A stretch of 40,067 bases of DNA from a virus (Duplodnaviria; Heunggongvirae; Uroviricota; Caudoviricetes), in the IMG/VR virus record IMGVR_UViG_2585427781_000002; one strand, given 5' to 3'. The notes under the pieces are model-generated. The model ran no database searches and was not told where the DNA came from. It saw only the letters and a list, made by a program, of their open reading frames with translations. Both the position numbers and the translations under genes were made by a program. This document shows positions 2,602 through 33,129 of this stretch, piece by piece; position 1 is the stretch's first letter; every line of letters starts with the position of its first letter.

Positions 2602-6003
<3,402 letters not shown>

Positions 6004-30772: not shown

Positions 30773-30928
30773 TTACTCCTCAGGTTCGTAAGCTGTGAAG
30801 ACAGCGACCTCCGTCTGGCCGGTTCGGATTCGTACCTCGCAGAGGTCTTTCCTCGTTACCAGTGCCGTCACTATGACGGTTAAACAGATGACGATCAGGG
30901 CGATTAACATCGCCTTTTGCTGCTTCAT
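30773..30928 (-). CDS. hokD: Hok/Gef-family type I toxin
   Basis: From ATG 30928 with AAGGAG RBS: MKQQKAMLIALIVICLTVIVTALVTRKDLCEVRIRTGQTEVAVFTAYEPEE, 51 aa, single transmembrane helix plus the conserved Cys; an in-frame upstream extension (mok-like) is present in the track ORF. Confidence 0.9.
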   Translation of the reverse strand: MKQQKAMLIALIVICLTVIVTALVTRKDLCEVRIRTGQTEVAVFTAYEPEE

Positions 30929-31185
30929 AGCCTGCTTCTCCTTGCCTTTCGGCACGTAAGAGGCTAACCTACATGTGTCTAGCATGAAATTGGCCTCAGA
31001 TTAATGTTAAGCGTCTTGCAGGACGCGTAATGTTAACTGGGGCTTTTCTCTACCTGCCGTTGGTGTTCGTGCCCGAGGCAGATAGCCTCAAGCACCCGCA
31101 GTCATTCTACTTAACTAAGATTTCCCCGCAAACCGTTTTGTCCAGCACAGTAAATATCCAACTAAACCAATGGAGTTCGCTGTAT

Positions 31186-31365
31186 TTACCGCCAGTATTC
31201 AATGCACATGACCGCCATGAACACCCCTAAAAAAAGGGCATTTATATATCCAAATATTAATATCAAAACATCAACTTTTTCCATATACCTTGCTGTGAAG
31301 ATGATGGGCATACATGATGCGAACAACCAGAACGCAACAAACAAAAACTGCAATGCGTTTTTCAT
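31186..31365 (-). CDS. hypothetical small membrane protein (two predicted transmembrane helices)
   Basis: 59-aa ORF from ATG 31365 preceded by a G-rich RBS-like sequence; strongly hydrophobic (ALQFLFVAFWLFA... / LILIFGYINALFLGVFMAV); AT-rich codon usage. Confidence 0.4.
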   Translation of the reverse strand: MKNALQFLFVAFWLFASCMPIIFTARYMEKVDVLILIFGYINALFLGVFMAVMCIEYWR

Positions 31366-31847
31366 TATTCCCCCTACAATCAATGTGCAATAACATTTAA
31401 ACACACCTCAATTTAGCCGGACATATAAATATCTAAACCAGAAAAAATCACTTACATAGCGTTACAAACTCTTTAGTCTAAATATTCATCGTAAAACATT
31501 CCCCATACTTATCAGCCCGTTCTGCGCCAGGTAGCTCATTGCCTTATCTGGGAACCTGTAATCAGGTTTCCGGATGCTGGTGGATTTTCGCGTTTTAGTT
31601 GTTCATAAAAGTGCACAGCTTTAACCAGTTCTTCTGATGTAACCGGGACTGGCGGGGCAGTGAATAAGGCCTGAATTTCATAGTTCGGCCTATCGTTACA
31701 ATCCTCTTTTTTCGGTACATATTTCCAGTCACCAGACCACTACTTCCCCTGAAAGTCCGTAACGCCTTTTTTTCACGTAGCGATATCGCCATGCCTTTTT
31801 TTTTGCTTCCCCCGCCGTTTCATGCCCTTCCTGATAATTAACCTCGC

Positions 31848-32024
31848 TCATTCATCGCCCCACTCATCACAATATGCTTCGACCGGAGTTTTTCCTGCTT
31901 CATAATCATCACGCCATGCTTCAGCATCAGCAGCACTGCCACCACGTAACTCTGCATAGTCCATTAACAGTTCATGCCATTCTTCAAAACCGACGTTGTA
32001 TTTAGTTGAACCAAAATCAGCCAT
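31848..32024 (-). CDS. hypothetical small acidic protein (58 aa)
   Basis: ORF below the track threshold, found by hand translation: MADFGSTKYNVGFEEWHELLMDYAELRGGSAADAEAWRDDYEAGKTPVEAYCDEWGDE, with GAGGAAG RBS-like sequence upstream. Confidence 0.35.
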   Translation of the reverse strand: MADFGSTKYNVGFEEWHELLMDYAELRGGSAADAEAWRDDYEAGKTPVEAYCDEWGDE

Positions 32025-32061
32025 TTTGTTCTTCCTCTTCGTCTTTTATTTCGTGATATGA

Positions 32062-32199
32062 TTAATTGCAGTAGTTAAAGAAAATATCTTTTGCTTCGTC
32101 ATGTATTTCATCAGGCGTCGCATCATTATCCACTTCGAATTCATCCTCGAAATCTCCACCGGCTATTCCCGTTTCAATAATTATTTTAAACTTTCGCAT
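32062..32199 (-). CDS. hypothetical small acidic protein (45 aa)
   Basis: Hand-translated ORF MRKFKIIIETGIAGGDFEDEFEVDNDATPDEIHDEAKDIFFNYCN; in tandem with the 58-aa ORF; an upstream hairpin (CCGCCC-GAAA-GGGCGG) lies between an AGGAGG and the ATG. Confidence 0.3.
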   Translation of the reverse strand: MRKFKIIIETGIAGGDFEDEFEVDNDATPDEIHDEAKDIFFNYCN

Positions 32200-32706
32200 T
32201 TAACTACCGCCCTTTCGGGCGGCCTCCTGATGTTCTGAGGGTGCAGAAATCCCTCCGGTTAAGGATTAAATTTTTAACAGTGCTAAATTTAATTATTCAG
32301 TTCTGGATTTTGTCACCCTGCGTATCCGCGCTTTCCCGTTACGCTCAATCTGAATTAGCTTTTCTATATTTTTTCGTCTTTCCCGTTCCTCCTGGCGCAA
32401 GAGCCTTACATCATCTGCCAGTCTGGTTTCTCTTTTCGCCACAGAGAGCATCCAGTCAAATGGCTCCACAACTGCACCTCAGATTTTACAGCGGACCTGA
32501 CGCTCTTTTTCGTCAACCCGGACAGAAGCGTGATGGCAATATGGTCTTTCCGATGGCTCATAAAGAAAATTAACCTGATTACGAGGGTCATCCTCTTTTA
32601 TCGGAAATAAAACGATATTGCTTAACTAATCCTCTGGTTTTATTTCCATGCTCCTCTCCTTTGATGCTAATGCCAGCGGTAATTGAAGCCTGATAGCTAA
32701 TTTCAC

Positions 32707-33129
32707 TCACAGTACCGCCTCCTGAAAATTACCCTGATAGAAAGCCAGTACACGCTGCATAGCTTCACTCTTCCGGCACTCGCGACAGATTATGTTTAGA
32801 CGACTGTCGTAGCGACGTATTTCTCCATCAGGTAGTGACCAGATAAGGTCCGGATCAACCACAGCGGGTTTCTTCACCTTCGCCCTAGAGAGTTTTTTGC
32901 GGGCATTTTGCCAGTCCTTTCGTGCCTGTTCAGACGGGAATAACCCGTAGCCGGAGTTGTATACATAACCACTGGCAACCAGCTCTCTGGCAAGAATGCT
33001 CATCAGATATCTTGTCGCACCTGTTTTAGCTTCCAACTGTCGTAATGTCTCGCGACCGCTCTGGCGCACAAGTTCGACCACCTGCTCTTTAATTTTTTCC
33101 CGCTCTTCCTGTGTAAAAACTTTTGCCAC
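32707..33129 (-). CDS. hypothetical phage protein (replication-module position)
   Basis: 140-aa ORF; its first ~42 codons overlap the last codons of the O-like ORF in another frame. Confidence 0.5.
   Translation of the reverse strand: MAKVFTQEEREKIKEQVVELVRQSGRETLRQLEAKTGATRYLMSILARELVASGYVYNSGYGLFPSEQARKDWQNARKKLSRAKVKKPAVVDPDLIWSLPDGEIRRYDSRLNIICRECRKSEAMQRVLAFYQGNFQEAVL

Follow-up and report, generated by a model that had tools for sequence, protein, structure and literature searches.

The stretch analysed here, referred to at its full length of 40,067 nt as the window, is IMG/VR virus record IMGVR_UViG_2585427781_000002, from a member of the Caudoviricetes. On its minus strand, positions 31405–32706 are very probably a partly decayed copy of a widespread accessory gene cassette of lambdoid phages. 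Read along that strand, the cassette comprises the end of an Ea22-type gene followed by four small genes, here called A (phrog_1621), B (DUF7167), C (phrog_519) and D (phrog_660), and its neighbours are the replication genes (O-like, DUF977) on the upstream side and hokD on the downstream side. Of the four genes, three (A, B and D) appear, with high confidence, to have been broken in this E. coli prophage lineage by ordinary gene decay, and C is the only one predicted still to make a full-length product. The locus is not new. All of its parts fall in families that have been catalogued already, though they are uncharacterised, and RefSeq marks the pseudogenes already: in a copy of 99.6% identity from strain 13P460A, the Prokaryotic Genome Annotation Pipeline (PGAP) lists five coding sequences, of which two carry a pseudogene flag and one has the name DUF7167. 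The parts of the block, from the 5′ end of the minus strand, are:

32588..32710, minus strand: relic of an Ea22-type gene, a 40-aa open reading frame (ORF) (phrog_37408, E 3e-30; PGAP WP_256070287.1)

32293..32649, minus strand: gene A, pseudogene (phrog_1621, E 1.8e-56, with the repaired or phage gene A sequence as query; PGAP "internal stop")

32223..32228, minus strand: Shine-Dalgarno (SD) sequence AGGAGG, 23 nt upstream of the gene B AUG (32197–32199)

32206..32223, minus strand: GC-rich hairpin with a GAAA tetraloop (G-CCGCCC-GAAA-GGGCGG-U)

32062..32199, minus strand: gene B (DUF7167 / phrog_1997), truncated to 45 aa by a TAC>TAA change at 32062–32064

31848..32024, minus strand: gene C, phrog_519 family, 58 aa, intact (phrog_519, E 5.5e-22; PGAP WP_000753057.1)

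31486..31851, minus strand: gene D, phrog_660, pseudogene (phrog_660, E 1.3e-21; PGAP "frameshifted; internal stop")

31405..31485, no strand assigned: non-coding interval separating the D remnant from the next ORF, with no ORF, Rfam match, promoter call or terminator call

We compared the block with phage vB_EcoS-640R1, which is 98% identical to the window and has longer ORFs, and with about 200 IMG/VR loci. Unbroken copies of the cassette are found in this phage and in the functional Shiga toxin (Stx) 2a phage ArgO145 (gp17, gp15 and gp14). Among 5,426 complete Escherichia coli genomes, the set behind all genome counts given here, megablast recovers the block at ≥80% query coverage in 1,027, and it is present in several phages as well; presence of the cassette is put at about 1,000–1,700 of these genomes. 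The intact forms of A, B and C are, judged by their patterns of substitution, real genes under purifying selection, with ratios of non-synonymous to synonymous polymorphism (pN/pS) of 0.08, 0.09 and 0.18, respectively. The start and stop codons of neighbouring genes overlap at B/C (ATGGCTGA) and at C/D (ATGA), an arrangement that would imply co-transcription from an early promoter together with translational coupling.

A sequence-only reading, made from the letters of the window, had seen no convincing ORF above 65 codons in the block and had proposed a decayed gene in its homopolymer segment. The first statement holds for the minus strand; on the plus strand there is a 110-aa ORF (32241–32573), although it is the antisense shadow of gene A and has no family match. 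The second was right and reaches wider than the segment for which it was made, as both D and A are pseudogenes and the 45-aa ORF is a truncated 60-aa gene.

Members of the gene A family are 118 aa long and carry a zinc-ribbon-like CHH...CxxC motif, with a below-threshold match to Zn_Ribbon_TF, and a basic coiled-coil tail. The window keeps gene A DNA at 96% identity (tblastn), and its frame, uninterrupted in the 640R1 copy and in ArgO145 gp17, is broken by a TAG at codon 8 (32626–32628) and by a TGA at codon 57 (32479–32481) that replaces the last Cys of CxxC. The first of these lesions also involves the Ea22 relic, in which an N-terminal "SEISYQA" is fused to a C-terminal "AGISIKGEEHGNKTRG"; we compared this C-terminus with "...AGIRIKGEEHGNKTRG" of ArgO145 gp18 and "...AGIRIKGE" of lambda Ea22. 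In the alignment with 640R1, a single G>T change creates the TAG of gene A and at the same time destroys the TGA stop of the relic, lengthening the relic ORF from 26 to 40 aa. The 3′ part of the relic (AAAGGAGAGGAG) provides the SD of gene A. More generally, the conserved 3′ end of Ea22-type genes (...AAAGGAGAG..., window 32652–32660) doubles as the SD of the next small gene, which is A in the window and C in Enterobacter prophages (loci L210–L214, ~2985–3000), and this role may explain why the end survives as a relic.

Gene B lost its C-terminus. The ancestral ORF encodes 60 aa and runs to 32017, where its stop overlaps the start of gene C by 8 nt. The 45-aa product of the window still scores 41.0 bits against Pfam PF23768 (cut-off 24.4; profile positions 1–52 of 60), compared with 55 bits and positions 1–60 for the 60-aa form, and it matches positions 1–45 of 57 of phrog_1997 (E 2.1e-23). 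The window product is therefore short of the full-length domain: residues 46–60 are missing, including the conserved C-terminal NYCNYSYHEI strand. An AlphaFold2 model of the 60-aa protein (predicted local distance difference test score, pLDDT, 79) has a β-β-α-β topology in which β3 is formed by residues 46–51, within the NYCNYSYHEI segment, so that the TAA in the window removes a predicted core strand along with the acidic tail. The truncation is likely to matter because the family conserves this segment past the stop and because the model makes it β3. Length was scored at 122 IMG/VR loci picked solely by the first 29 nt of B; 92 of them encode 60 aa and 2 encode 45 aa. Another truncated allele, of 36 aa, is found at 20 of the 122 (L086–L205), and its existence beside the 45-aa allele indicates that B has been truncated independently at least twice.

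Gene D carries several lesions. Its ATG overlaps the stop of gene C, intact alleles at the IMG/VR loci reach 171 aa, and the remnant in the window stops at 31486–31488. When an intact 171-aa allele is used as the tblastn query, residues 1–35 map to 31851–31747, residues 27–91 to 31772–31578 in another frame, and residues 145–171 to 31569–31489 in a third. The sequence-only reading had noted that reading frames switch in the homopolymer segment, and the comparison with related prophages shows what the segment is, a frameshifted copy of a known gene. The first switch is a +1 frameshift at an A7 run (31767–31773, minus strand) that is A6 in intact alleles (GTG AAA AAA GGC, in ...WRYRYVKK-(D/G)VTDFQ...). 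Beyond it are an in-frame TAG at 31740–31742 and a deletion of residues 92–144 (53 codons), which brings another change of frame. Only the first ~16–23 residues of D resemble Ea22 and gp13 (BLASTP E 0.18–0.29), and Ead/Ea22 (Pfam PF13935) has no match in either the intact 171-aa allele or the repaired window sequence.

The order in which these lesions arose can be approached through allele counts. For each single-nucleotide change we used a 55-nt megablast query centred on the site, the centring making the query allele-specific. The counts were as follows:

Intact B (TAC) allele: 1,706 genomes of 5,426

Intact A (TGC) allele: 1,585 genomes of 5,426

A-TAG allele: 91 genomes of 5,426

B-TAA allele: 39 genomes of 5,426

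A-TGA allele: 32 genomes of 5,426

These nested counts suggest a stepwise build-up of stops in one prophage lineage, in which the TAG of A would have come first, the TAA of B next and the TGA of A last. Separately, D would have been hit by a one-base slip in its A6 run, by a nonsense codon and by an internal deletion. In the near-identical prophage of 13P460A the remainder is largely complete, which indicates that the decay is confined to the accessory genes discussed here. Each of the three nonsense mutations is a coding-strand G:C>T:A change (GAG>TAG, TGC>TGA and TAC>TAA). For this genome, the block is a routine case of non-essential prophage genes turning stepwise into pseudogenes.

Several points weigh against this account. 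"Accessory" is a positional label for A–D, and the order of mutations is drawn from nested allele counts rather than from a phylogeny. In addition, C may be intact only by chance, being just 174 nt long.

The family of gene C is small. The window protein is acidic (isoelectric point, pI, 4.05; net charge −12), and its gene has its own SD, GAGGA, 9 nt upstream. The phrog_519 match spans only positions 76–137 of the 143-position profile; most family members are stand-alone proteins of 50–65 aa. The family has 72 representatives at 50% identity among 1.84 billion proteins and shares the motif FEEW..L..A..G.S..D..AWR.DYDAGKTP.EAW.DEW, with W16, W37, Y41 and G44 conserved among 32 divergent members. 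An AlphaFold2 model of the product is a three-helix bundle (pLDDT 77).

A candidate translational element lies ahead of gene B. The AGGAGG at 32223–32228 has no ATG, GTG or TTG 5–9 nt downstream of it, and the stretch between it and the B start codon, 23 nt away, holds a complete hairpin. The sequence-only reading had reported this hairpin between the SD and the 45-aa ORF at 32208–32225; the hairpin is real and so placed, although its position is 32206–32223, 2 nt away. Its core, CCGCCC-GAAA-GGGCGG, occupies 32207–32222, and the wider limits include an outer G·U pair. The 6–7 bp GC stem is present in both the minimum free energy and the centroid structures, at about −14 to −17 kcal/mol in 52-mers, and the element is single-copy within the window. 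With the 16-nt stem-loop closed, the spacing between SD and AUG falls from 23 to 7 nt. We consider that there is about an even chance that the hairpin forms a split ribosome-binding site of the T4 type for B, its folding leaving an effective 7 nt between the far-off SD and the AUG.

Split initiation regions in T4 were reportedly described by Nivinskas et al. in 1999 and by Malys and Nivinskas in 2009. In T4 genes 38 and 25 the structure shortens the gap, from 22 to 5 nt in the first and from 27 to 11 nt in the second, and mutagenesis showed that it enhances initiation (PMC3014915). The two situations share a strong SD too distant from the start codon (22 and 27 nt in T4, 23 nt in the window), a stable hairpin contained wholly in the interval, and a spacing that becomes functional once the stem is closed (5 and 11 nt in T4, 7 nt in the window). 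They differ in that the T4 regions were established by mutagenesis, reporter fusions and chemical probing, whereas the reading for gene B comes from sequence geometry and predicted folding. They also differ in setting, as the present case is in a temperate lambdoid phage, where some alleles lack the SD or carry mismatches in the hairpin.

Comparison among loci adds to the picture. The SD is kept as AGGAGG or AGGAGA in nearly all loci, and SD and hairpin move with gene B over mosaic joints, some loci being unrelated just upstream of TCAGGAGG. In a divergent B homologue (64% identity) the hairpin is missing and the sequence reads GGGGGAGTGAAAG-ATG (GGGGGAG-N6-ATG); compared with it, the E. coli form looks as if 16 nt had been inserted into an otherwise equivalent initiation region. 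Across 22 natural variants of the hairpin, 94% of cells are paired and 9 are unpaired, with one compensatory pair and 12 wobble-preserving changes.

Other observations count against a split ribosome-binding site. Covariation in the 22 variants does not rise above shuffles, a result that is uninformative given that the family hardly extends outside E. coli. An uncompensated A·C mismatch in the hairpin is present at eight loci, all of one lineage, and five loci lack AGGAGG together with half of the 5′ arm. Within the 3′ arm there is also GGCGGU, a weak alternative SD at a distance of 6 nt from the B AUG, so that the hairpin could repress rather than enhance the translation of B.

It is possible, though on the unlikely side, that the hairpin is not an enhancer and serves instead as an element of mRNA processing or stability, as a weak terminator or pause site in the early operon, or as an occluder of GGCGGU that damps B. 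Intergenic hairpins of this kind, very stable and with a GNRA-type tetraloop, are typical of stabilisers and terminators, GGCGGU sits within the 3′ arm, and some of the loci without AGGAGG keep B intact, all of which would suit such a role, as would the missing covariation signal. However, neither strand has a U-tract after the stem and the terminator scan of both strands made no call, the AGGAGG serves no other start codon, closing the stem gives an optimal spacing of 7 nt, and in the divergent homologue the SD and spacer are the same but the insert is missing. The hairpin also has no Rfam match and a single copy in the window, and its readings as an intrinsic terminator, as a member of an Rfam family and as a dispersed repeat are not supported. 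The SD-hairpin-AUG arrangement ahead of DUF7167 is a clean candidate for a split ribosome-binding site of the T4 type outside the T-even phages.

The two tandem minus-strand ORFs of 58 aa (31848–32024) and 45 aa (32062–32199) that had been translated by hand are real, and their products are as acidic as was claimed (pI 4.05 for both; net charges −12 and −9). A further reading, that both are functional DNA mimics or anti-defence factors, inhibiting host proteins when expressed by the prophage, is unlikely. The high density of acidic residues fits it, but no fold or sequence match reaches significance, PADLOC returned nothing, and B in the window lacks a predicted core strand. An NCBIfam search gave no match. 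Ocr and Gp2 of T7, p56 of phi29 and VMY22, Dmd of T4 and the anti-CRISPRs are like these proteins in size (45–60 aa), negative charge and early expression, and the predicted β-β-α-β topology of B is like that of Gp2 and p56; they differ in that neither B nor C has a significant structural or sequence match to them. It is unlikely that B, C or both represent a new class of small acidic phage inhibitors of a host nucleic-acid-binding or defence protein, with B made through a split ribosome-binding site that would be the first in a temperate lambdoid phage. Were it true, only C might still act in the window. The genes A, B and C occur in Stx phages and in about one in three complete E. coli genomes, and they are reasonable candidates for screens of phage early-gene function.

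Some minor observations concern the B family. "DUF7167" occurs in no paper of the searched literature. In its profile, the β2-α segment (vfevddDAtpeeI..eak.iF) has a sub-threshold, local likeness (E 0.022) to FKVxxDATKxEIKxAVExLF of ribosomal protein uL23, which is probably a convergent β-α motif. The start of an E. coli-type DUF7167 gene also appears on a 3-kb scaffold binned as Collinsella sp. (metagenome-assembled genome, locus L207), probably through binning contamination rather than transfer.

The poly-A runs of gene D had been taken as a possible sign of slippage-prone expression, and both the A7 run and an A9 run (31796–31804, minus strand) are indeed present; A9 is the sole run of at least 9 in the 40-kb window, which has 19 runs of at least 7. 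That these runs are a programmed slippage or frameshift site for regulated expression of the downstream frame is very improbable, and we rejected it. Run length is polymorphic among the 122 loci (A6 in 76, A7 in 5 and A8 in 17) and frames do switch there, as such a site would have it. Against this, the long conserved alleles are all single ORFs with A6, D in the window has the TAG, the 53-codon deletion and a further frame change past the slip, and the A8 form gives an 85-aa product in a non-conserved frame. The A9 run, in turn, is an in-frame cluster of three substitutions (AAAAACAGT to AAAAAAAAA) that leaves the frame unchanged and is private to the window genome, being found in no other compared locus or genome; an allele-specific query for it gave no match, possibly owing to low-complexity masking. 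A frameshift near GTCTGGTGACTGG was also considered and rejected, since the intact alleles locate the slip in the A7 run and show the "stop" at the site first considered to be a nonsense codon of its own. The three substitutions of the A9 cluster are all to A and lie within 4 nt. This cluster and the shared G:C>T:A pattern of the nonsense mutations could reflect mutational bias, a multi-nucleotide event or sequencing error.

For gene A, the reading of the TGA in CxxC as selenocysteine has practically nothing left in its favour, for although Cys-to-TGA within CxxC is a classic selenoprotein signature, the same copies carry the TAG upstream at codon 8, genomes with the TGA are a nested subset of those with the TAG and are far outnumbered by those with TGC, and PGAP calls the gene a pseudogene.

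Insertion sequences also speak for a block that lysogens can do without: in some E. coli genomes IS1A or ISApl1 has inserted inside the same 1.3-kb block. The cassette also changes place and company. In ArgO145 the intact order, in the early-left operon, is Ea22-like, A, a 70-aa gene, B, C and Ea22-like. In Enterobacter prophages gene C directly follows an Ead/Ea22 gene without B nearby, and this pair has two locations, one beside xis-int and the other after O-P in the nin-like region. The ArgO145 and Enterobacter arrangements therefore suggest that the block is a mobile "Ea22 neighbourhood" module.

Such a module resembles the exo-xis region that lambda and Stx phages carry, with its small genes orf60a, orf61, orf63, orf73, ea8.5 and ea22 (PMC8614690, PMC10834534). 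In both, small genes that are transcribed early and are poorly characterised cluster beside Ea22-type genes; the ArgO145 cassette, and gene C alone in the Enterobacter prophages, occupy that region, and the window keeps the 3′ end of an Ea22-type gene. However, the Pfam families differ (DUF1317 and DUF1382 in exo-xis, DUF7167 here), gene D is not a member of Ead_Ea22, and in the window the cassette is in a nin-like position after the replication genes. The proposal that A, B and C are homologues of lambda orf60a, orf61, orf63 or ea8.5 was dropped, as there is no sequence similarity.

Related prophages had been said to carry relBE at this place, and the comparison is correct. In the Qin prophage of E. 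coli K-12, relE-relB-ydfV-flxA lies between hokD and dicC, in the same chromosomal or prophage slot, adjoining hokD-rem-ydfU. The two differ in that K-12 Qin has relE-relB-ydfV-flxA and has lost the replication genes, while the window is without relBE; neither Qin nor Rac of K-12 yielded a homologue of any of the genes A to D.

Beyond gene D, the window order runs from the replication genes through the cassette block to hokD, and the neighbouring features are:

31186–31365, minus strand: hydrophobic 59-aa ORF (MKNALQFLFVAF...) with a GGGGGA SD-like motif, between D and hokD

30923–31097, minus strand: Sok RNA (Rfam RF01794, 107.8 bits)

30773–30985, minus strand: Hok/Mok ORF

The 59-aa ORF is open in 119 of the 120 loci that carry it and is without PGAP annotation. 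Every difference among its 9 alleles is non-synonymous (pS = 0), and neither Pfam nor PHROG gives a match, so nothing supports a coding gene. The last two features together make up the hokD/Sok type I toxin-antitoxin locus (window 30773–31097, minus strand), a known element that adjoins the block.

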